Source of the DNA: Lachnospiraceae bacterium
GTDB lineage: Archaea; Thermoplasmatota; Thermoplasmata; Methanomassiliicoccales; Methanomethylophilaceae
Assembly: GCA_963645865.1 (NCBI GenBank)
Contig: CAVIUM010000001.1
Coordinates: forward strand, 35,858-99,857
Length of the DNA stretch: 64,000 nucleotides
Direction of reading: 5' to 3'
Both the position numbers and the translations under genes were made by a program. Below are positions 9,817 to 60,904 of this stretch, in pieces (within the stretch, counting starts at the first letter, position 1; each line of letters opens with the position of its first letter). Below the pieces are notes generated by a model. The model made no database searches and was not told where the DNA came from. It saw nothing but the letters and a program-made list of their open reading frames with translations.

Positions 9817-11094
9817 ATGGTGACGGCCACGAGGTTCTTCGAACAATCCGCCGAGTTGAACGGCGGCATCGTGAAGAACGGCCTGTGCTCCATATGCAAG
9901 GGCGCCCACCGCCTGTGCGGGAAGGACCGCTGCCCCCTGATGGTCAAATTCTATTCGCAACAGAAGTCGCGCCCGCTCATCGACGCCACCGAGCTGGCGG
10001 GGTCCAGTCCCCCCGCGGTCTTCGTCGGCAGGTACGGGTATCCCAAGGTGGACATCGGACCGCTCCTGCCGCCGGAGTTCGGGGACACCTCCCTCATGGG
10101 CACCCCGGAGAGATGGGTCGGGAGGTCCATCGACGAGATCGTCGACTTCAGATTCAGGCTGGTCCGCGGGAAGTTCAGGATCGACGCCACCGACTTCAGG
10201 AAGAGCGGGAAGATCGTGGACGGGGTGCAGGAGCTGGCGCTGTCGGAGCGTCCCGTGGATACCGAGGCATCCTTCACCCAGAAGCCCAAGGGACGCGTCG
10301 TGTTGGACGATGACATCGAGCCCTTCGGTCCGTCCGCGAGGATGGAGAAGATGTCCACGGGCAACAGCAGGTTCGAGAGGAACCTGGAGAAGAGCTTCTA
10401 CGACACCGACATGAAGGCGACCGACGCCGTCGTCTCCGCCTACAGGAACGGCACCCTGATCTCCGAGATCCAGAAGGCGTTCTCCGTCGGCACCATGGGG
10501 ATGGGGAGGAACCGTCGCTTCGTCCCCACGAGATGGAGCATCACCGCCGTGGACGACATCATCGGGAAGGACCTGCTGAAGACCACCAAGTGGAACCCCA
10601 CTATCGACGATTTCCGCCTCTACCAATGGACGGAGCTGGACAACAGGTGGGCGATCCTGCTGATGCCCTGCACCTGGAGGTTCGAGCTCATCGAGGCGTG
10701 GTATCCGAACACCACCTGGAACCCATCGGGCAGGACGATAGACATCATCCACGACAGCGAGTTCTTCGACGGCAGGACCGAGTACGCCCACATCGGGGGA
10801 TGCTACTACGCCTCCAGGATGGCGGTGAACGAGCTCCTGATCGAGGAGGGGAGGACCGCGGGAGCGGTAATAATGCGCGAGGCCCATCCCGGGTACATCA
10901 TGCCCGTCGGCGTATGGAACGTCAGGGAGAACGTCCGTGCGGCACTGAAGACGGAACCGACCCACTACGAGACCCTGGATGCCGCATTGGACCGGGTGGA
11001 GAAGATGATGGACATCCGCAGGGACGGATGGATCGCCAATTCCGACGTCATGCGGGATTGGCTCGTTCAGAGGAGGATCGAGGACTATTACCGA
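9817..11094 (+). CDS. nreA: Nre family archaeal DNA repair protein (CGA-terminated)
   Basis: N-terminal CxxCKG..LCG..RCP, GSSPP.VFVGRYGYPKV, PTRWSITAVD, GGCYYA and PVGVWNVRE. C-terminal PIP-like QRRIEDYY is followed directly by CGA 11092-11094; the standard-code ORF continues to 11694. Confidence 0.92.
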
Positions 11095-11101
11095 CACGAC
11101 A

Positions 11102-11872
11102 TTGGGGGAGTTCACCGGGGAGAGGCTCGAGTGGGACGGGCCCTTCAAGGTAGTCGAATGCTCCCGCGCCCTGGCCCCTTCCGGGCTGCCGGAGATGGAT
11201 TACGCCCTCAATCCCTACGGAGGATGCGAGCACGGCTGCATCTACTGCTACGCGCCCGGGCACACCCATTCCGACCTCTCGACCTGGAGGGTCGTCAAGG
11301 TCAAGCGCAACATAGCCGACCGTCTGCTGAAGGAGCTCCCGTTCACCGAGGGGACGATAGGGATCGGATCGGTCACCGATCCGTATCAGGGGGCGGAGAG
11401 GAGGTTCCTCCTCACCAGGAGGTGCCTGGAGATCCTCTCCTCCAAGGGGAGGTCCGTCCATATCCACACCAAATCCGATCTGATCCTGAGGGACCTGGAC
11501 ATCCTGACGGGGATGGACTGCGTGGTAGGGATGACGATCACCAACACGGACGACCGCGTCTCGAAGATCACCGAGCCCGGCGCCCCCCTGCCGGAGGCCC
11601 GCCTACAGGCGCTGGCGGAACTCGTCGATTCCGGCATCAGGACGTATGCGCTCGTCGCCCCCATCATGTCCACCCTGGAAGGCCGCGAGGCTGAGCTCGC
11701 AGATGCGCTCAGATCCGCAGGCATACGGACCGTCTTCCACGACCATCTCAACCTCAGGCTGGTCGATCCGTCGAGGCTCGAGAGGATGGGCATCGGTCCG
11801 TCCCCGAAGGCCGAGAGGGAGTTCCTGGAGCAGTGCCTGCTCAGGGGCCTGGACACCGTCTCCGACCACCGA
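11102..11872 (+). CDS. Radical SAM protein, SplB/spore-photoproduct-lyase-like
   Basis: NPYGGCEHGCIYCYA (CxxxCxxC), SVTDPYQ and HTKS. TTG start. Ends CAC CGA CCG CGA TGA (first CGA 11870-72; TGA 11879-81). Confidence 0.88.
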
Positions 11873-14263: not shown

Positions 14264-15052
14264 ATGCGCGCTGCGCTTTACGCCAGGGTATCGACGGATG
14301 ATCAGGCAGTCGAAGGCTTCTCCTTGGATGCCCAGTTCAAACGTCTGGAGGCCTACTGCAGGGTCCGCGGCTGGGAGGTGGCCGGGGAGTACAGGGACGA
14401 GGGTTATTCCGGAAGGAACACCCGCCGTCCGGAGTACGACCGCATGATGCGCGAATCCGATTCCTGGGATGTGCTTTTGGTCCTGAAGATGGACCGTATC
14501 CACAGGAACAGCGTCAATTTCACCCGCATGATGGACGACCTCCGCGGGAAAGGCAAGGAGTTCAACTCGGTTCAGGAGAAGTTCGATACGACCACTGCGA
14601 TGGGACGCTTCGTCATGGATATCATGCAGAGGATCGCCCAGCTCGAGAGCGAGCAGATCGGCGAGAGGACGTTCATGGGGATGGAGTTCAAGGCCCGCAA
14701 CGGCACCGGGAACCTCGGTTCCGGGCATCCCTACGGCTACACGTATTCCGACGGTCGTCTCGAAGTGGTCGAGGACGAGGCCTACGCCGTCCGCGCGATA
14801 TACAACATGTATCTCCGCGGCTCCACCATGGGAGGCATCGCCGACTTCCTGAACGATGCGGACATCCCCGCGAAAAAGGGCGGCAGATGGAACAAGCAGT
14901 CCGTCTGCAACATCCTCCACAACCCCCTCTATGTGGGATACTCCGATTGGAACGGCATCCTCCGCAAGGGCGAACAGGAGCCCATCGTCGAGATGGAGAA
15001 GTTCGAGAAGGTCAACGGTCCGCTGTTCAAGGACGGGACATGCGCGCAGCGA
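14264..15052 (+). CDS. Serine recombinase (resolvase plus recombinase domain), copy 1
   Basis: ALYARVSTDDQ, DEGYSG..RP, KMDRIHRN, E.E.I.ER, PYGY and ILHNPLYVG. First in-frame CGA 15050-52; TGA 15059-61. Confidence 0.92.
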
Positions 15053-15897
15053 TCTACGTGAGGGTCTCCACCGAGGAGCAGGCCGCGGAAGGTTATTCGA
15101 TCGACGCGCAGAAGGAGCTCCTGCAGGATTACTGCCTGGTGGAGGGATGGGACGTCGCCGGCGTCTACGAGGACGACGGTTTCTCCGGGAGGAACGACAA
15201 GCGTCCCGCCTATCGCAGGATGATGGCCGAGATGGATTCGTGGGATCTGATCCTCGTGATCAAGATGGACCGTATCCACAGGAACAGCCGCAATTTCATG
15301 AACATGATGGAGGTCCTCGACAGGCACGGGAAGATGTTCGTCTCCCAATCCGAATCGCTGGATACGACCAACGCCCTCGGGAGGTTCGTCGTCGACATGA
15401 TCCAGCGTCTGGCGCAGCTGGAGAGCGAGCAGATCGGCGAGAGGACCCACATGGGTATGCGCGAGAAGGCCGAGACGCTCGACAACGCCACCGAAGGGAA
15501 GAGGACCATGGGATTCACCCCTCCGTTCGGCTACAGGCTGGAGGACGGGGCTTTGAAGGAGGATGAGGACGAGCTTCCCGTGGTGAAGAGGATGTTCGAC
15601 GAATATGCCGAAGGACGCACCGTCGACGAGATCTGCTGGTCCCTCAACCGCGAGGGCATCCTGACCCGCAGGGGGAATCCATGGAACAAGCGCAACATGT
15701 CCACCATCCTCCACAACCCGGTCTATGCGGGATTCATGAGGTGGGAGGATGTGCTGATAAGGCACCCGGCGGCGGTGGCCGTGACGTCGGAGGAATTCAA
15801 CGCCGTACAGGAACTGATGGCGTCCAGAGTGCGCGATCCGGCCAAGAGGAACGTCAAGCTCCTGCCCACGGTCTCCGACTTCGTTTCGGAATCTTGA
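15040..15897 (+). CDS. Serine recombinase (resolvase plus recombinase domain), copy 2
   Basis: MRAAIYVRVSTEEQ, DDGFSG, KMDRIHRN, PPFGY and ILHNPVYAG; overlaps the end of copy 1. Confidence 0.92.
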   Translation: MRAAIYVRVSTEEQAAEGYSIDAQKELLQDYCLVEGWDVAGVYEDDGFSGRNDKRPAYRRMMAEMDSWDLILVIKMDRIHRNSRNFMNMMEVLDRHGKMFVSQSESLDTTNALGRFVVDMIQRLAQLESEQIGERTHMGMREKAETLDNATEGKRTMGFTPPFGYRLEDGALKEDEDELPVVKRMFDEYAEGRTVDEICWSLNREGILTRRGNPWNKRNMSTILHNPVYAGFMRWEDVLIRHPAAVAVTSEEFNAVQELMASRVRDPAKRNVKLLPTVSDFVSES

Positions 15898-21388: not shown

Positions 21389-22174
21389 TCGATGGGGGAA
21401 GTAGTGCAGAGTGCGGGTTTCCGGATACTGGGAGTTCAGGATGCACTTCGCATACATCGCTGTTATATACCTCCCCGTTCCGACAGAGTACTGGTCGTAG
21501 TTTTCGCGCTCTGAAGGGGTCATTTCACCCAGAAGCGTGCAGTCGAAATCGCACTCGTCGGAGATGTTCTGATTGAGCAGGATCTTGGAGATCTCGGAAC
21601 TCTCTATACTCTTGCCCGATCTTATACGGGTCACGGCGGAACAGATTTCCAGGGTGTTGTTTATGAATCTTTCCGTGCCCTCCATCCGATCGGGATCGTC
21701 CACGGGGATGTCGCTGAGACGCTCCATCGTCGTACGGACTCCGCGGAGGACGGTCGGATCCTCGCCGTTCAGGGAGAGATCGCCGGTGAGGCCCTCGGAA
21801 GCGAGTCCCGACGAGACCTTCAATAACGGAAGAGTGCGGATGAGCTTGCCCGTCATGAAAGAGAACCTGACCTCATCGGCCCTGTCGCGTTCGCTCAGGT
21901 CGGCGAAGTACCTCTTACCCATCCCTTCGGGCATGAACGTGATGCCGTCTCCGACGACGCGCATCTGGTTCTGGATGTTGCACAGCTCGTTGCGTCCCAG
22001 GGACGACATGAATTTGGCGAGGCCGATCTGACGGGTGATCTCGTCCACCCAGTGATAGCGCTCGAAATCGTCCATGTCGGGATCGAAGGTGTATCTGGCG
22101 ATCTCGCAGCCTTTGCGCATGATGATGCGTCCGAGCACCGTCACATCGTCCCCGCTGAAGATCATCCGTTGCAC
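21389..22174 (-). CDS. Hypothetical protein (CGA-terminated)
   Basis: Long ORF co-oriented with its neighbours. In-frame CGA at 21389-91 after LHYFPH; standard-code end at 21320. Confidence 0.65.
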
Positions 22175-24694: not shown

Positions 24695-25570
24695 TCGGGA
24701 CCGGTCGGACGCGGATGCGCCGATCCCGATCTCCATGGCGCGGATCAGGTGCTTCTCGGCCTCCTCGATCCTCCCCACCTTCATCAGGGCGCCTGCCAGG
24801 TCGTGGTGCAGCGACATGAGGGATTCGGTGTCCGGGAGGGTGTGGTTCTCCAGGAGCCCTTCGAGTATCCCCACGGCGGCCGTGAGGTCCGCGACCGCGT
24901 TGTCGAGCATCCCGAGGTCGGATTCCCCGCTGGCGCGCATGGCGAGGGCGAGCACGATCTGATCGGTGTCCTCCAGGGTTCCGTTCTCCAGCAGGGAGGA
25001 TCCGATCTCGATGGCCTCTGAATATCTGGACACGGAGCCGCGGACGTCGTTCATCAGGTCGTCCGCTTCGGCGGCGATGTTGCACAGCTCGAGACGGCGG
25101 TTCTGCGACCAGGGATCCATCGCCTCCGTCTCCGACAGGCCCTTCATGATGAACGCGTAGGCGTCGTCCGGATGCTCGGAATCGATGAGCTCCCCTGCTG
25201 CGGTCATGCACATCCTGACCACCGCGCGGCGGTCGTAGCGGAATGAGCGGGGTCCGAAAGCGTCCAGGCGGGTGATGGCGACGGAATACTCCTCGATGGG
25301 GTCCCCTCCCTGCTCGTAGATCAGCGATGCGATCTCGCAGTGGATCTTAACGAAGGTGCCGGGATCCACGGAGTCGAGGGAATCGGCGATCTCCGCCGCC
25401 GATGTCAGATCGTCGAGGGCGGATGTCCTGTAGCCCATCATCGCCAGCACGCATCCGCGGTTGAGATAGGCCTCCGTGAGCGCCTCCCTGTCGTCTCCCG
25501 ACTCCAGGGCGTTGACCCTGCCGTTGAGCTCCTCGAGCGATGCCTCCAAGTGGGAATCCGCCTTCTCCAT
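24695..25570 (-). CDS. TPR protein (CGA-terminated)
   Basis: TPR segments (AYLNRGCVLAMMG, HHDLAGALMKVGRIEEAEKHL); in-frame CGA at 24695-97. Confidence 0.72.
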
Positions 25571-25621: not shown

Positions 25622-26968
25622 ATGAACCATGAGAGGATCCTTGCGGTCCATGACATCTCCTGCGTCGGCAGGTGCTCGCTCACCGTCGCGCTGCCCATCA
25701 TCTCCGCCGTCGGAATCGAATGCTCCGGACTGCCGACGGCCGTTCTGTCCACCCACACGGGCGGATTCAAGGGATTCACGTACCGCGACCTCACCGAGGA
25801 CATGGTGCCCATCGACGAGCACTGGCAGACCCTGGACATAAAGTTCGATGCGTTCTACACCGGGTTCCTGGGCTCCTTCGAGCAGATCGACATCGTCTCC
25901 AAGCTCTTCGACGACCTCTCCCACGACGGGACGACCATCTACGTCGACCCGGTCATGGCCGACGAGGGGAAGCTGTACGGAGTCTTCGGGCCCGATTTCC
26001 CTGCGGGGATGAGGAGGCTCTGCGAGAAGGCCGACGTCATCATGCCGAATCTGACCGAGCTGTGCCTCATGCTCGGCATCGAGTGGAAGCCCGGCCCGTA
26101 CACCCATGAATACATCGATTCCATGCTGGACCGTGCGAAGGAGTTCGGCGTCAAGCGCATCGTTCTCACCGGCATCAGCTTCGAGAAGGGGCTGCTCGGC
26201 GCCGTTTACAAGGACTTCGAAACCGGCGAGACCGGTGAAGTGATGAGGCCAGAGATCCCCGGATACTACCACGGCACCGGGGACGTGTTCAGCTCGGCAC
26301 TGGTAGGCGCATGCGAGTCCGGCGTGTCCCTCGCCAAGGCCGTCGAGGCGGCCATCAATCTGACCGTTTCGAGCATCAAGCGCACCTACGAGTCCGGTGA
26401 GGACATCAGGTACGGTGTCAACTTCGAGATCGGCCTCGCGGATTACATCAGGGAGGTCTCCGAGGGGAGGACGGGATTCACCATGCTCCCCGCGGCCAAC
26501 GACGAGGAGCTCAGGATCATCGCATCCATGGGTTTCACCGTCTGGAACGAGGCCTACGACGGCATCGTCCCCCAGGACCAGATCTACTACATGCTGAAGA
26601 AGTACCAGTCCTTCGAGGCCCTGAAGGAGCAGATCTCCCACGGATACACCTATCTGATGCTCAGGGACGGCTCCACGCCCGCCGGATACTGCGGATACGC
26701 CCCCGAGGAAGACTGCCTGTTCCTCTCCAAGGCGTACATCCTGAAGGAGTTCAGGCACCACGGCTACTTCTCGAAGATAGTCGCCCACCTGAAGGACGTC
26801 GCCGTCCAGCTGGGGAAGGACCGCATCAGGCTCACCGTCAACAGGGATAACGCCAACGCCGTCGCCGCCTACCAGCACGAGGGGTTCGAGACCGTCAAGG
26901 TCCAGGACGTCCCCATTGGCGACGGGTTCGTCATGAACGACTTCGTGATGGAGCTGAAGGTCCAGCGA
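25622..26968 (+). CDS. pdxK: Pyridoxal/pyridoxamine kinase fused to a GNAT acetyltransferase (CGA-terminated)
   Basis: HDISCVGRCSL, LSTHTG, DPVMAD, PNLTE and GTGDVF, then a GNAT domain (LSKAYI, LTVNRDN, YQHEGF, MNDFVME). CGA 26966-68 overlaps the next ATG. Confidence 0.88.
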
Positions 26969-28659
26969 TGTTCATACCGACCACGGCCGACGAGGTCCGC
27001 CGTCTCGGTTGGGAGAAGCTGGATGTGATCCTCGTCTCCGGGGACACGTACACCGACAACTCCTACAACGGGACGGCCCTCGTGGGCCACTGGCTGATCG
27101 ACCACGGGTTCAGGGTCGGGATAATAGCCCAGCCCGACGTATCGTCGGGCGATGACATCTCCAGACTGGGGATGCCGGAGCTTTTCTGGTCCGTATCCGC
27201 CGGGTGCGTCGACTCCATGGTCGCCAACTACACCCCCACGAAGAAGTTCAGGAAGGAGGATGATTTCACACCCGGAGGGGTGAACGACAGGCGCCCCGAC
27301 AGGGCGTGCATCGCTTACACCAACCTGATCAAGAAGCACATGAAGGGGAGGCCGGTCATCCTCGCAGGGATCGAAGCGAGCCTGAGGAGGATCGCCCACT
27401 ACGACTTCTGGTCCGATTCCGTCAGGAGATCGATCCTCTTCGATTCCAAGGCCGACGCCATCGTCTACGGCATGGGGGAGCTGGCCAATCTCGAGATGGC
27501 CCGCCGCATGCGCGACGGGAAGGACTGGAAGGGAGTGGACGGGATCTGCCACATCGTCTCCTCCGAACCGGAGGGCTGCATCCGCCTCCCCTCGTACGAG
27601 GAGGTGTCCTCCAGGGAGGACCGCAGGCCTTTCATGAAGGCGTTCGAGGTATTCAGACGCAATTCGGATCCGATCACGGCCCAGCCCCTCTGTCAGAAAC
27701 ATGGGGACAGATGGCTGGTGCAGAACAGGCCCATGCGCTGCATGACCTCCGAGGAATTGGATTCCGCCTACGGATCGGATTTCGAGAACGCCGTGCATCC
27801 CTACTATGCGAAGCAGGGCAGGGTCAAGGCCATGGAGACCGTGAGGAACTCCATCACCACCCACCGCGGATGCTACGGGAACTGCTCGTTCTGCGCCATA
27901 GCCGCCCATCAGGGCACGACCGTCGTTTCCCGTTCGAAGGGATCCATACTCGCCGAAGTGGAGAGGATGGCCTCCCGGAAGGGCTTCAACGGCGTCATCC
28001 AGGATGTCGGAGGGCCCACGGCCAACATGTACGGCATCGAATGCAGGAAGAAATGCACCGTGGGGAGGTGCGAGGACCGCAGATGCCTCGACGGCCCCTG
28101 TCCCAAGCTGGGGATCGACCATTCGGCCCAGATCGACCTTCTGCATTCCATATCCGAAGTCGACGGGGTCCGGAGGGTCTTCGTGAACTCCGGGATAAGG
28201 CACGACATGATCGTCGCCGACAAGCGGATGGGCGGCGAGTATCTCGATATGCTCGTGTCGAAGCACGTCTCCGGTCAGATGAAGATCGCTCCGGAGCACG
28301 TATGCGACGATGTCCTGAAGCTTATGGGGAAGCCCGGCAGCGATGTCCTCCGCAGGTTCAAGGGCATGTTCGACGCTTCCTGCAGGAACCTCGGCCGGGA
28401 CGAGTACCTCACCTACTACTTCATCGCCGCCCATCCGGGCTGCACCGACGACGACATGCGCGAGCTGAGCAGGTTCTGCCATGACGAATTGAAGATCTCC
28501 CCGGAGCAGGTGCAGGTCTTCACCCCCACCCCGTCCACCTATTCCACGGCGATGTGGTGGTGCGGCACCGATTCCAAAGGGAGGCCGGTGAAGGTCGAGC
28601 GCTCGATCCAGAGACGTCAGCATCAGAAGGAGCTGGTGGTGGGGAAGGGTGGACGCTGA
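26968..28659 (+). CDS. YgiQ/UPF0313 family radical SAM protein
   Basis: DVILVSGD.Y.D, DSMVANYT, GIEASLRRIAHYDFW, HRGCYGNCSFCAI, GGPTANMY, SGIRHD, KIAPEH and YFIAAHPG. Confidence 0.93.
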   Translation: MFIPTTADEVRRLGWEKLDVILVSGDTYTDNSYNGTALVGHWLIDHGFRVGIIAQPDVSSGDDISRLGMPELFWSVSAGCVDSMVANYTPTKKFRKEDDFTPGGVNDRRPDRACIAYTNLIKKHMKGRPVILAGIEASLRRIAHYDFWSDSVRRSILFDSKADAIVYGMGELANLEMARRMRDGKDWKGVDGICHIVSSEPEGCIRLPSYEEVSSREDRRPFMKAFEVFRRNSDPITAQPLCQKHGDRWLVQNRPMRCMTSEELDSAYGSDFENAVHPYYAKQGRVKAMETVRNSITTHRGCYGNCSFCAIAAHQGTTVVSRSKGSILAEVERMASRKGFNGVIQDVGGPTANMYGIECRKKCTVGRCEDRRCLDGPCPKLGIDHSAQIDLLHSISEVDGVRRVFVNSGIRHDMIVADKRMGGEYLDMLVSKHVSGQMKIAPEHVCDDVLKLMGKPGSDVLRRFKGMFDASCRNLGRDEYLTYYFIAAHPGCTDDDMRELSRFCHDELKISPEQVQVFTPTPSTYSTAMWWCGTDSKGRPVKVERSIQRRQHQKELVVGKGGR

Positions 28660-29323
28660 ACTCTCCGCCCTGCTGACCGGGGCATGCTCCCCCTATGTGG
28701 ATTCCGTCAAGGCCGATTATGTCCGCAAGAAGGACTTCTACTACGCCTGGGGCATCAGGAACGGGGTCGCCACATTGCAGATATCCGATTACCTCCAAGG
28801 CGCATCCGACGATGTACTCGCCGATTTCGGCGTCATGATCGTCAGGAGGGCCAAGAACATGTCATGGGAGGAGCCCCAATCCCTCCTGGACTTCGTCTCC
28901 GCGGACGACTTCATCCTCTCCAGGCGCCCGATTTTCATTCGCAGGAGCAAGAACCTGCTCCGCACCGACAGGGGCGAGCACGCCTTCCTCCCCGATTCCG
29001 TGGAGAGGCTGATCGATTCCGGACTGCTCCGTCCGTCCGATATCGACAATTCATGGTTCTCCTGGACCCGCAGGGACAACCTCAGGCGCGTGGGGTTCTG
29101 CGCCACCATGTTCCGCGTGGTGGGGATATCCTCGGTGCTCGACTCCCCCGACATCCCCGATGAGGTCCTGGACTACGTGGTGTACCACGAATGCCTCCAT
29201 CTGAGGCAGGGCTACCGTCCTTCGCACAGGGTCCATGACGCCGAGTTCCGCGCTTGGGAGCGCTCCTATCCCGGCTGGGAGGATTGCGAGAAGGTCCTCC
29301 GCTCCCTGTCGCTCTCCGTCCGA
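28649..29323 (+). CDS. SprT/YgjP-like zinc metallopeptidase
   Basis: ISSVLD.PDIP..VLDYVVYHECLH...H..EF. In-frame CGA at 29321-23; TGA at 29339-41. Confidence 0.8.
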
Positions 29324-33048: not shown

Positions 33049-34008
33049 TCGCTCGCGCGATATCCTCGCCAGGAAATCAACCGCCTCGGGGCTTCCGATC
33101 TCCGCGGCAAGCTTCGCCAGGCCGACGCCCCTGCTCTCGTTGAGCTCCACTCCTTCGCCGTTGTAATAGAGCATCCCGAGCATGAATATCGCCAGGGGAT
33201 CCCAGGAAAGAGCGGCGTTAGAGAACAGGTCGTGGGCCTTGTTGTAGTTCATCGGCACCCCGGTCCCCGAATAATACATCATTCCGAGGGTGAGCATCGC
33301 ATCGGGGTCGCGGCGTTCCACGGATGCCGTGAGCATCTTCGCGGCGAGTTCCGGATCGCGTTCGACCCCTTCGCCGTGCAGATACCTCAGACCGACGAGG
33401 TACAGCGCATGGGGGTCGCCCTTGCTCGCGGCCTCGGTGTACCACTTCATCGCCATCATCGCATCGGCTTCGACGCCCTGCCCGTTCTCGTACATCCTGC
33501 CGAGGTTGAACATGGCGTCCATGTTGCCCTGTTCGGCCGACAGGGAGAACATGCGGAATGCCTCCGCCGGATCCTTGCGGACGCCCCATCCGTTGAAGTA
33601 GAGGATCCCGAGGTTGCATTGGGCGGCGGCGTGGCCCTTGTCAGCCGCCAGCATGTACCATTTGGCGGCCTCCATCTTATTGACGGCGATGCCCTCGCCC
33701 TTGTCGCACATGTATCCGAGTCCGTATTGAGCCTCGACGTATCCCTGGTTAGCGGATTTGCGGTACCATTGGATGGCATCCATCTTGTCCATCGGGACTC
33801 CGATACCGTAGCAGCGGAAGTAGCCGAAGGTGTACTGGGCTGCCGGGACTCCGGCGTTGGCGGCGACTCCGATGAAGGCGACGGCCTGCACGAGATCGCG
33901 TTCGACGCCGTCCCCTTCATAGTACTTCTTTCCGAGGAGGTACTGGGCCTCGGCATCCCCGCGCTCGCTCCTCGCGGTCAATTCCAAGACAGAAGGGTCG
34001 TCCGTCAT
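33049..34008 (-). CDS. Sel1-repeat protein (CGA-terminated)
   Basis: About 8 Sel1 repeats; CGA at 33049-51 right after the last helix (EAVDFLARISRE). An alternative TTG start lies at 34047. Confidence 0.9.
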
Positions 34009-51348: not shown

Positions 51349-52325
51349 TGTTCAAGAGAGAGGACGGGAGCCCGGACCTGGTGAAGGTCCTGGGTGCCTT
51401 CATGGTCATCACGGCCATGTACATACTCATCGATTCGCTGAGGACCTACTTGGGATTCTTCCAGCTCCTGATGAGCCCCTACGTCCTATCGACCCTCATC
51501 TCGCCGGTCATCACCCTCCTCTTCGGGATCGCCATCCTGGTGCCCAACGATCGCACGGTCCGCACCAACGGGTCCCTGGCCGGAATCGCCCTGGGCGCGT
51601 CGTTCATGTCCAGGAACATCGGGTTCATGGAATACTACGGCGCGGACGTCTCGTTCATCATATCCTACACATCCTTCCTCATCGGGATATTCGCGATAGT
51701 CTCCTCGACCGCCCTGCTGTTCGGATACTCGCACTATTCGGACAGGATCTGGCAGACCATGGGGATAATGTCCCTCATCGAGCTGTACCCGTTCTATGAC
51801 ATCTATGCCAGCTACCTGCCCCTGCTGGACTACATCCCCTACTTCTTCAGCAACATCCTGTTCATCGCATGCTACGGGATGCTCATCCTGCTCATGTTCG
51901 ACAAGAGCCTGAGGATCATCCCGGTCAACAAGCGCATCGACGGGGATCTGGGTACCGTCAAGGACATAATCTACTCCGGCGACGGCACATACATGGTCCC
52001 GGATGATGCGGATTCCCTGGTCCGCTTCGCCGGAGGCGACGGAGGGGAGAGGCTGGAGATCGTCCTCCACGACCGCAGGGAGACGAGGATGCTCAATCTC
52101 AGGAGGCCCCAGGGTTCCGAGAACCCGATCGCCATGGTGGTCCCGACCAACGGAAGGAGCTTCATGAAGGGCTTCAGATTCGATGTCGTCGCATGCTGCC
52201 CTTCGGCCGAGAACGACAGGATCCGCATCTACGGACGCGACGGCCTGTTCGTCGACATACTGGTCCACGAGATACCCGAGGAGCCCAGGATCGCCGGGAG
52301 GATCCGCAGGAAGAAGAAGGTCCGA
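51345..52325 (+). CDS. Membrane protein with the same architecture as the upstream gene (CGA-terminated)
   Basis: ATGA overlap with the upstream stop; ends RIRRKKKV then CGA 52323-25. Confidence 0.7.
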
Positions 52326-52968: not shown

Positions 52969-54513
52969 ATGGGAGAAATCGGACGTTTCATCGACGGGAT
53001 GCCGTCGCTTCGCTTCAGGAACGGAAAGATCGCGGTGCACATCCCCCGGTACATCTCGGACGAGGATGCGCTGCTGGAAGTGGGATTGGAATGTCCGAAC
53101 GGCCGCAGAATCGTCGGCAGACTGCCGGAGAGCGGATTCCCCGGAACGAGCGAACCCGCCTCCGTCATCATAGACGGGATATCCCCTCTCGACGGGTTCT
53201 CGGTCCTGATAGACGGATGCGCGGTCTACGAATGCCCCCGCACCGATGCCCTGTACTTCGGTGCCGATGGCAGGCAGATCGGGGAACCCGACGGAATGAC
53301 AACCGCTGTCAGGAGACCTGGGTCCGGACCTGACATCGGAGATGCGATTTCCATCGCGCCTCTCGGCGATGCGGAAGCAGTGGTGTACGCCGCTCCCGCG
53401 CTCGAACGCAGGTTCGAGATCTCCAGGCCGTCTGTCCGGTTCAGGGACGGCGTCTCCTACCTCTACGTCGCCAGATACATCGGCGTCCCCGGTGACCTCT
53501 TCCTCGTATCCATAGCAGGGGATTTCGGCAGGATCGATCTGGGGAAGATGCCGTCGAAGTCTGCCGACGGGAAGCAGATCGCCTCCGGGACGGAATTCAG
53601 ACTATCCGATTACGGCATCACGGTCCTCGATTGGTTCGATGTGATGATCGACGGGCGCAAGGTCTTCTCGTTCCCCCAGCGCGATGTCCTCGTCTTCTCC
53701 GAGAGGGGCACCGTCACGGCATTCCCCCTCGACAAAGCTGTAGTCGTCTTCCTCGACGACGTCATCATCGAGAGCGACGGGGAGTGCCTGAAGGAATGTT
53801 CGCTTCCAAGCGGTATCCTCTATCGCCTCTACGAGGCCGAAGGGCCGATATCCTTCGGAACCAGCATCCCCGATTATTCGCCCGAGCCTGAGACGATCGA
53901 GCAAACCTGCGATCCCGTACCCGGACCTACGGTCATCGAGGAGGATACGGAAGAGGGTCCGAACATCCCCGGACCGGAGATCGAGGAGGTACCCCGGGAA
54001 CCCGATACCGATCCCTATCCGGAGGTCCCCTCGGGATCCTTCGTCCGTCTCACGCCGAGGATGGTGCTGAGGGAATCGGGGATACTCCGCAGGGTCGGCG
54101 TGCTCGTCCCCGAATACAGGCCTTCAACGGAGAATCCCGTCCTGACCGCCGTCGGGAACCGCGGGCGCATCGAGATCGGCCCCCTGCCCATGGGCAGATG
54201 GGCGTCGAAGGAGACCGTCGTCAGCATCCAGGCGTACGGCATCAATCCCCTGGAGACGTTCTCTCTGGAATTGGAAGGTAGGACGATATTCACCAGCCAG
54301 GGCACCAACATTCTGTTCTTCACCTCCGAGGGCACCAGGCTGACCACGCCCCGCGGAAGGATAATCGCGGTCCACCGCCCCGAACTGGAGCTCGGTGTCC
54401 GCGGTGCGGCGAGATGCAGGATCGTCTCCTCCGAGGAGCGCGGCGGACTGGTGTACGACGAGGTGGAGCTCGGGGCCAGGGGCACCGTCTACAACATGAA
54501 CGTCGAACGCCGA
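52969..54513 (+). CDS. Hypothetical protein with three internal repeats (CGA-terminated)
   Basis: 514 aa; three similar beta-rich units and a Pro/Glu linker; first in-frame CGA at 54511-13. Confidence 0.72.
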
Positions 54514-59860: not shown

Positions 59861-60904
59861 TCGATCCATCCTGTATCTCAGGATCGCACCCATCCCGCCC
59901 AACGCGGCGAGGGACTTCCCCCCGTCATGCTGTCCGGAAACGACGATGACGTTGCCCTTCTGGGATTCGACCGCGCGCACCACATCGTCCAGATCCTGAT
60001 CCCTGACCTTCGAGTCGAGCAGCAGGAGAGTCTCCACAGCCCCCGACAGGGCGGCATCGCGCACCTCCGAGGTCCCGTACGTCCCGAGCCCGTTGGGCTT
60101 GGATATCTCGGACATCAGCTTCTCCACGGCCTCGATCTCCGTTCCGACGGCCGAATCCCTCAGGACATCGGCACCCATGCCCGCCTTGAGCAGCTCGTTG
60201 ATCCCGGCCATCCCGCACTGTCCCGTGTGGTAGACGTACATCTTCCCGAACAGATCCGGACGCATCCTCTTGAGGTCCTCGGACAGCGTCTCCTTCTCGA
60301 ATCCCGGGCCCAGGAGGACCAGCGGCATGTTGGGCTCCATCAGCGGTGCGAGCTTCTCCGCTATCTCGGCGTGGTACGAATCCGCCTGCGGCTTCTCCGC
60401 GTACTGCTTCCCGGACCTGCCGGAGCGGATGGTCACCACCTCCTTCAGGCCGTACTGCCTCAGGACCGCGACGGTCGCGTCGTCCTGGTCCAGGGACACG
60501 AACACGATCCTGGGCTTCTTGGAATCCGACACGGCCCTCCTGAGCCTCTCGAGCTGGGTCTCCCTCCAGTGCTCCTTGGAGATCGTCAGGGAATCCCCGT
60601 TCTCGAGGATCAGCGTGTGATGCTGTCCGATATCCTGCGGACCGGTCTCGATGGTTCCCAGGAGCTTCAGCCTGAGGTCGTCCTCCGAGAACTCGATCTT
60701 CTCCATGCGCACTCCGAGGGTCATCCTCTTCTTCTCCGCCCTCTCGGCGCGGAGCTTGTCGGCGGACTTCTCCTCGCGCCTGGTGGTGGAAGCTGTGACG
60801 AGATCCCCCACCTCGATGACGTTGTACAGGTGCCAGATGTCCTCATCGGTCTCTATGAGCACCTTTATCCCGCCGGACGAGGGATCCTCCCCGAGTATGC
60901 GCAT
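59861..60904 (-). CDS. pelA: Pelota ribosome rescue factor (CGA-terminated)
   Basis: EDIWHLYNVI..GD.V...TTR, GQHHTL, GPGFEK and LGGMGAILRYRMD followed by CGA 59861-63. Confidence 0.94.

Follow-up and report, generated by a model that had tools for sequence, protein, structure and literature searches.

This report concerns a gene junction in the assembly GCA_963645865.1 at which an arginine codon, CGA, stands at the apparent end of a gene. The stretch analysed, called the window throughout, is 64,000 nucleotides of contig CAVIUM010000001.1 (positions 35,858 to 99,857, forward strand). The upstream gene encodes a pyridoxamine kinase fused to a GNAT domain (pdxK-GNAT), and the downstream gene is ygiQ; the junction, the rest of the genome and its relatives together indicate that CGA is almost certainly used here to end genes. 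Genomes are labelled G (that of the window is G000), loci or records L, genera g, families f and contigs of G000 C. By its release factor aRF1, the nearest record named to genus is Candidatus (Ca.) Methanoprimaticola sp. (L181, 94%), and G000 (2.28 Mb, 60% GC, with a tRNA-Pyl) is a Methanomethylophilaceae archaeon, Ca. Methanoprimaticola-like. The features at the junction are as follows.

25622..26968, plus strand: pyridoxamine kinase-GNAT fusion gene, 448 aa if CGA stops and 468 aa under translation table 11.
26966..26968, plus strand: CGA, putative stop of the pdxK-GNAT gene, with its final A the A of the ygiQ ATG (from the sequence, orthologues and junction count).
26968..28659, plus strand: ygiQ radical SAM gene, 563 aa, beginning at the overlapping ATG (TIGR03904).

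The window reads ...AAG GTC CAG CGA TGT TCA... at this point, with CGA at 26966-26968 and ATG at 26968-26970, which confirms the initial annotation in having the pdxK-GNAT frame end GTC CAG CGA and its A open the ygiQ ATG. The upstream product matches PRK07105 (pyridoxamine kinase) with 266 bits against a cut-off of 231, and carries the GNAT domain in addition. The downstream product matches the YgiQ model TIGR03904 with 741 bits, positions 1-557 of 558 of the model lying on residues 2-557. Because the model begins at residue 2, the ATG at 26968 is the true ygiQ start, and the objection that ygiQ might start elsewhere falls away; the last base of the putative stop and the first base of a true start coincide. 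Under table 11 the pdxK-GNAT frame goes on for 19 codons to a TGA at 27026-27028, 61 nucleotides inside ygiQ. In 27 of 29 other orthologous loci a TGA or TAA lies within one codon of the CGA column, and one of these 27, L003, has a real TGATG overlap with ygiQ at the same junction; the remaining two loci keep CGA (L002, 92% identical, and L024, 59%). Counts across kin, here and below, are not independent.

Across the genome we counted in-frame NNA codons followed by TG, excluding cases with TGA as the next codon. Real gene junctions were found at 16 of 29 such CGA codons and 21 of 49 such TGA codons, as against 22 of 1701 for the 13 other sense NNA codons. With orthologues stopping in the same column, the ygiQ start in place and CGATG acting like TGATG, the proposal that the gene stops exactly at this CGA appears well founded. 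The initial annotation had also named TGATG overlaps as a hallmark of translationally coupled operons; the likeness of CGATG to TGATG stands, but TGATG is not the main overlap type in G000, being formed by 57 of 831 TGA ends, as against 417 for ATGA/GTGA. CGATG overlaps occur at 44 of 160 CGA ends, and of these two types CGA can form only the equivalent of TGATG. A single junction could not by itself show genome-wide use of CGA.

In 800 long table-11 frames of G000, CGA is rare mid-frame and piled up at both ends. The coding score collapses after 160 of 175 in-frame CGA codons and 831 of 903 TGA codons; in the controls it does so after 19.5% of 631 CGG, 9% of 6411 CGC, 14.8% of 405 CAA and 7.6% of 7530 CAG codons, and by this test CAA and CAG do not behave as stops. 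The position of the stop in homologues gives a measure that does not depend on the downstream coding score. Queries were kept when a homologue at 45-90% identity reached within 12 residues of the codon (68 of 175 CGA, 326 of 903 TGA, 69 of 300 CGG, 109 of 300 CGC and 89 of 300 AGG rows). The homologue's standard stop lay within five codons in 54 of the 68 CGA rows, 28 of them in the exact column, and in 301 of the 326 TGA rows, as against 4 of 69 for CGG, 1 of 109 for CGC and none of 89 for AGG (together 5 of 267). The CGA column is conserved between species, for example after ...FVDSH in eight loci.

When CGA was declared a stop, the score of the gene caller rose from 205,094 to 218,843 and the coding length from 1.740 to 1.812 Mb. 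CGG or CGT as a stop reduced the coding length and TTA left it about unchanged; only CGA gave a substantial gain in both measures. With this setting 402 of 1957 calls end in CGA. Of these ends, 302 are followed by a loss of coding signal and lie over three codons from the next standard stop, 88 have a standard stop within three codons and 12 continue coding; TAA ends number 83, and the called genes hold 82 internal TAG codons. About 16-20% of G000 genes end in CGA. On the strength of the coding drop, the homologue stops and the gene-caller gain, we regard the CGATG junction as one instance of a pattern seen across the genome, in which genes end in CGA, and these sequence comparisons make it almost certain that CGA is a termination site.

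Terminal CGA might instead be an ordinary rare arginine codon derived from TGA by mutation, with the resulting C-terminal extensions tolerated. A tRNA-Arg(UCG) gene does exist, and 88 of the 402 CGA ends have a standard stop within three codons; but the extensions would exceed 30 codons in 60 of 160 cases and 100 codons in 34, some running across whole genes, and on this ground the explanation fails. It is made still less attractive by the holding of CGA at the stop column between species and by the different behaviour of other one-step neighbours of TGA (the CGG control, TGG and AGA), and we consider it highly improbable. Rare codons can promote frameshifts, and ribosomes might slip at a slow CGA into a near out-of-frame stop. 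Within five codons, however, out-of-frame stops follow CGA less often (5.5% and 5.2%) than they follow TGA (9.2% and 10.5%), with medians of 58 and 38.5 codons. With no out-of-frame stop signature after CGA this candidate was rejected, and we give it even less credence than tolerated extensions.

We then considered the factor that would have to read the codon. G000 has one aRF1 (C71:4073-5302, minus strand; background on aRF1 in PMC3467058), plus pelota. The protein retains NIKS, Glu52, YxCxxxF and GGQ, and its Met65 aligns without a gap with human Arg68, which points to an alteration of the release factor in the codon-reading region. In a quick tree of 71 aRF1 rows with a midpoint root, Met or Leu at the Arg68 position marks one clade of 42 rows (SH-aLRT 99), the remaining 29 having Arg, Lys, Gln or Asn. 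In simulations of human eRF1, a C at the first position is predicted to cost about 6 kcal/mol with Arg68 but 1-2 kcal/mol in the Arg68Ala variant (PMC5681627). Residue 123 is Arg and corresponds by offset to yeast Leu123; at CGA, yeast eRF1 competes with tRNA(UCG) and can bring about termination, more so in the L123R variant, which is UGA-biased (PMC7379694). Because Arg123 is common to the whole order, we treat it as background and not as the cause. As a separate observation, the aRF1 gene of a g1 record (L242) has, in addition to an internal CGA at codon 78, a TAG in frame immediately ahead of NIKS, at the Gln55 position; the TAG is pyrrolysine or an assembly error.

The cognate tRNA has not been lost from G000, where tRNA-Arg(UCG) is encoded at C131:2839-2912 with A31.A39. 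It is the sole tRNA of 41 in the genome without a 31-39 pair; among matches read by eye, this pair is missing in 34 of 34 from the genus and present in 59 of 59 from 14 other genera. A second subclade of the genus (8 genomes) has instead a tRNA-Arg(UCG) with C33 and a 27-43 mismatch. In G015 (L397) and in L404-L407 we observed C33 for the usual U33, a C32-C38 loop and the 27-43 mismatch; loss of this tRNA in the G015 subclade was considered and rejected, all 43 G015 tRNA hits having been read and the divergent form found. Anticodon stems of four base pairs have been described for bacterial tRNA-Trp (PMC13092985). We infer that the altered tRNA-Arg(UCG) forms decode poorly.

The CGA stop also looks leaky. 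A standard stop within three codons backs up 42 of 160 CGA ends, compared with 103 of 831 TGA ends (Fisher p=2.4e-5), although in 17 of these 42 the standard stop follows directly, and the CGA there could be an arginine codon before an ordinary stop. Genes in the fifth with the strongest codon bias end in CGA less often (28 of 359) than those in the fourth fifth (105 of 360; 92-105 of ~360 in the lower three fifths). Inside genes the codon is nearly but not wholly absent. Because 12 of the 402 calls continue coding, codon 78 of the aRF1 gene is a conserved CGA and the tRNA is kept, the use of CGA in G000 would be leaky or dual and not a complete reassignment. Several of the few internal CGAs lie on three contigs of 2-3.4 kb (C206, C179 and C155), with three on C206, which looks IS66-like; foreign genes may be truncated by a code in which CGA is a stop. 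On the minus strand of C24 (0-based 21035 of the reverse complement) an in-frame CGA lies between two coding stretches, which we take to be GmhA-like and GmhB-like, as a possible readthrough fusion, and no homologue of this site was present among the fetched loci.

The main remaining rival is starvation and rescue in place of adapted stop recognition. Ribosomes would stall at a poorly decoded CGA and be released by aPelota with peptidyl-tRNA hydrolase, or by slow, off-pathway action of aRF1. The atypical tRNA-Arg(UCG) fits this account, as does the description of yeast CGA termination as rescue (PMC7379694), and the aRF1 substitution is found also in genera without CGA ends. Rescue would nevertheless have to serve about 400 genes, pelota itself included; the CGATG junctions require an intact mRNA, the genome G091 has CGA ends with a normal anticodon stem, and the conserved CGA of the aRF1 gene is left unexplained. 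We judge stall-and-rescue to be unlikely.

That conserved CGA is at codon 78 of the aRF1 gene, in frame and in the context T-CGA-C, and the alignment to solved structures is unbroken across it. Codon 78 is CGA in 48 of 50 genomes of the genus, and it is preceded in 48 of 48 by GCT or TCT, which make up 5% of Ala and 2% of Ser codons, respectively. The T-CGA-C context is found in 48 of 48 genus aRF1 genes as against 9 of 402 terminal CGAs, the C at +4 being partly forced by a conserved Leu. Family-wide (other families and genera g18, g25 and g28 excluded), 111 of 116 distinct aRF1 genes contain an internal CGA, compared with 4 of 101 for argS and 10 of 113 for the neighbouring deacylase gene. 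The codon concerned is clade-specific (9, 11, 25, 27, 50, 78, 99 or 123), and G152, with AGA at codon 78, has CGA at codon 11. This pattern makes it likely that aRF1 is subject to feedback through readthrough of its own CGA. When aRF1 is scarce, tRNA-Arg(UCG) would decode codon 78 as Arg, giving negative feedback by in-frame readthrough.

Another rival is site-specific C-to-U editing of terminal CGA to UGA in the mRNA, which would leave the code standard. One C-to-U step separates the two codons, and plastid UGA/CGA editing is reported (PMC12574857). A frame-blind editor would also recode NCG-A, yet NCG before A is not depleted (0.35, as against 0.32-0.38), and frame-blind editing was rejected on this basis. 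CAA and CAG, moreover, are not used as stops, and editing predicts neither the avoidance of internal CGA, nor the changed tRNA, nor the CGA of the aRF1 gene. We regard it as quite improbable.

We think it probable, and hold this with good confidence on the sequence evidence, that the altered aRF1 reads CGA directly and that some readthrough leaks past it. Without the Arg68 brace the NIKS loop would be looser, and a UGA-favouring aRF1 could then also bind CGA, taking C or U at stop position 1. With TAG taken by pyrrolysine and TAA rare, a UGA-leaning factor tolerating C would read CGA, and the weak tRNA-Arg(UCG) would lose most contests with it there. CAA and CAG would stay sense because the Gln tRNAs look normal. 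The CGATG junctions would then be ordinary one-base stop/start overlaps, and the working code would have UGA, UAA and CGA as stops with UAG as pyrrolysine.

The wider family was surveyed in per-genus samples of 38 kb to 1.2 Mb. Coding loss follows CGA in 18 of 24 cases in G013 and 1 of 2 in G015 (19 of 26 in the genus pool), and in 4 of 4 in G091 (g22); elsewhere the figures are 3 of 10 in G137 (g24), 0 of 10 in g29, 1 of 21 in G181, in which Arg is kept, and 1 of 4 in G042 of another family. When CGAs outside aRF1 were classed by homology, with the rows 'no homologue' and 'unclear' excluded, g1 had 27 terminal and 12 internal and g22 had 8 terminal and 4 internal, and no terminal CGA was classed in g12, g21, g23, g24, g26, g28 or g29.

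Several observations weigh against the reading of CGA as a stop recognized by an altered aRF1. The Arg68 result is a simulation, made on human eRF1 and with Ala, and it also predicts a loss of discrimination against CAA, yet CAA and CAG are not stops here. Six genera with Met or Leu at this position (g12, g21, g23, g24, g26 and g29) have no terminal CGA in samples of 38-370 kb; their internal CGAs outside aRF1 number 3, 15, 11, 20, 5 and 16, respectively, with an additional 0 to 4 CGAs per genus that have their own standard stop within six codons. The Met/Leu substitution is therefore not sufficient. Nor is the tRNA defect necessary, because G091 has a paired stem yet CGA at gene ends in all four cases. 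Family f7 (L162, L163, L166, L167, L173 and L176), with Gln or Asn at the Arg68 position, reads CGA as sense. Other families also have CGA at 27 of 197 Arg codons of the aRF1 N-domain, although they use it more freely, with 34 of 367 over the remainder of the gene. The 12 internal CGAs of g1 belong here too, several of them looking like shadow-frame artefacts, as does the finding that five of the eight terminal calls in g22 are a single cmk-cbf5 junction, in frame with the next gene. At that site (L256:1561-1563, and the same site in L133, L134, L243 and L253) a conserved CGA separates cytidylate kinase from Cbf5/TruB; it stands one codon ahead of the cbf5 ATG and could be a stop with restart or a conserved readthrough fusion.

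The distribution of CGA across the family fits a gradient in which most genera use it only as a rare codon and sensor. At the other end stands G141, a sample of ~33 kb with 12 CGA and 7 TGA ends, in which the aRF1 gene has no internal CGA and itself ends in CGA. Its aRF1 (L071) has, beside Met65, two more unique changes, Asn66 and His67. In this genome, which is 87% complete, a search with five queries and a reading of 24 of the 43 tRNA hits yielded Arg tRNAs with UCU, CCU, CCG and GCG but no tRNA-Arg(UCG). Joint loss of tRNA-Arg(UCG) and of the internal CGA is what the feedback model predicts, seen once, and G141 is a candidate for a completed reassignment. For the family as a whole we moderately favour a code change in progress. 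An Arg68-type substitution would have opened aRF1 to CGA in a clade that takes in most of the family, and the aRF1 gene would have captured a CGA sensor at several positions; in Ca. Methanoprimaticola two separate changes would then have weakened tRNA-Arg(UCG), with CGA becoming a main stop, and at least one lineage (G141) would have lost both tRNA and sensor.

Of the 55 genes called within the window, 12 have CGA at their end (two of these are weak calls), pelota among them. Besides the pdxK-GNAT end, the following were listed.

59861..59863, minus strand: CGA ending the pelota gene (gene 59861-60904) after ...ILRYRMD, with the next standard stop 94 codons on; the match to TIGR00111 positions 1-350 of 351 stops three codons short of the CGA.
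11092..11094, plus strand: CGA ending an NreA-like gene (match below the family cut-off); the table 11 frame runs 199 codons over the next gene.
54511..54513, plus strand: CGA ending an unnamed gene; the table 11 frame runs 309 codons across an ACT-domain gene.
52323..52325, plus strand: CGA gene end, next standard stop 77 codons on.
33049..33051, minus strand: Sel1-repeat gene ending in CGA, next standard stop 30 codons on.
24695..24697, minus strand: TPR-like gene ending in CGA, next standard stop 22 codons on.
21389..21391, minus strand: CGA gene end, next standard stop 22 codons on.
29321..29323, plus strand: CGA gene end, next standard stop 5 codons on.
11870..11872, plus strand: CGA gene end, ambiguous, with a standard stop 2 codons on.
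15050..15052, plus strand: CGA gene end, ambiguous, with a standard stop 2 codons on.

Elsewhere in the window, two neighbouring serine-recombinase genes at 14264-15897 (plus strand; resolvase/recombinase and Ccr-like matches below cut-off) possibly mark the edge of an integrated element. Among the aRF1 relatives, most records are titled Methanomethylophilaceae or Methanomassiliicoccales, and several (L179, L180, L189-L192 and L227) bear bacterial titles (Bifidobacteriaceae, Ruminococcus, Dialister, Prevotella and others) with an aRF1 75-99% identical to that of G000; these titles look like mislabels.

If true, the use of CGA described here would mean that in a free-living cell stop codons no longer all begin with the otherwise invariant U, and the candidate residue would be the one singled out by a published simulation, whose prediction becomes testable. 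It would supply living intermediates (sense, sensor only, leaky stop and possibly complete) for the ambiguous-intermediate model of code change, and release-factor feedback through a sense codon in archaea. For these gut methanogens, table 11 would misannotate about one-fifth of C-termini; PylRS/tRNA pairs in wide use come from their family. No report of CGA as an archaeal stop codon was found in the literature searched, most subscription papers being beyond reach. Genetic code 34, with TAG as pyrrolysine, has been described for Methanomethylophilus and its kin, with an inferred reliance on TGA and TAA only (10.1101/2024.09.30.615893). G000, with its tRNA-Pyl and internal TAG codons, belongs to the same family, and CGA has zero occurrences in the main text of that preprint. 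Codetta found CGA/CGG reassignments in bacteria but cannot detect new stop codons (PMC8629427), and four taxon names gave no match in seven of the Codetta supplements. Its cases resemble the present one in that an Arg CGN codon was made rare and then given a new meaning; unlike here, they are sense-to-sense changes in low-GC genomes.

In yeast eRF1, as here, termination at CGA competes with a tRNA, and the L123R change that raises it matches the Arg123 of aRF1; unlike here, it is low-level misreading in reporters and not a genomic stop (PMC7379694). Autoregulation of release factors is known from prfB, in which UGA-C early in the gene senses RF2 (PMC5009743), and from the recoded class-I release factors of Mimivirus and Megavirus, in a paper that states internal-stop regulation to be absent from archaeal and eukaryotic homologues (PMC3521657). 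Provided that CGA is a stop, aRF1 is like these genes in having a conserved early termination signal followed by C, in an apparently selected context, and its full-length product would require failed termination. Unlike in prfB, the signal consists of a codon that is nominally sense and has a tRNA to decode it, and it is passed in frame, the aRF1 frame being continuous through CGA78 with no +1 shift.

Sense codons have become stops in organelles, as with AGA and AGG in vertebrate mitochondria (NCBI tables 2, 22 and 23). Sense-to-stop changes are reported for mitochondria and one plastid lineage (UUA/UCA, peDinoflagellate), the plastid case being called the first outside mitochondria (PMC12574857). 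G000 resembles these systems in having a sense codon at homologous 3' ends and a release factor that appears altered in its codon-reading region. It differs from them in that the change is found on a cellular chromosome with ~2,000 genes, involves an aRF1/eRF1-type factor and puts C in place of U at the first base; most of the genomes retain a gene for the cognate tRNA, and within the aRF1 gene CGA is still sense. The use of CGA works like an organellar sense-to-stop change but is not complete in G000, since this genome still has the tRNA and one conserved CGA used as sense.

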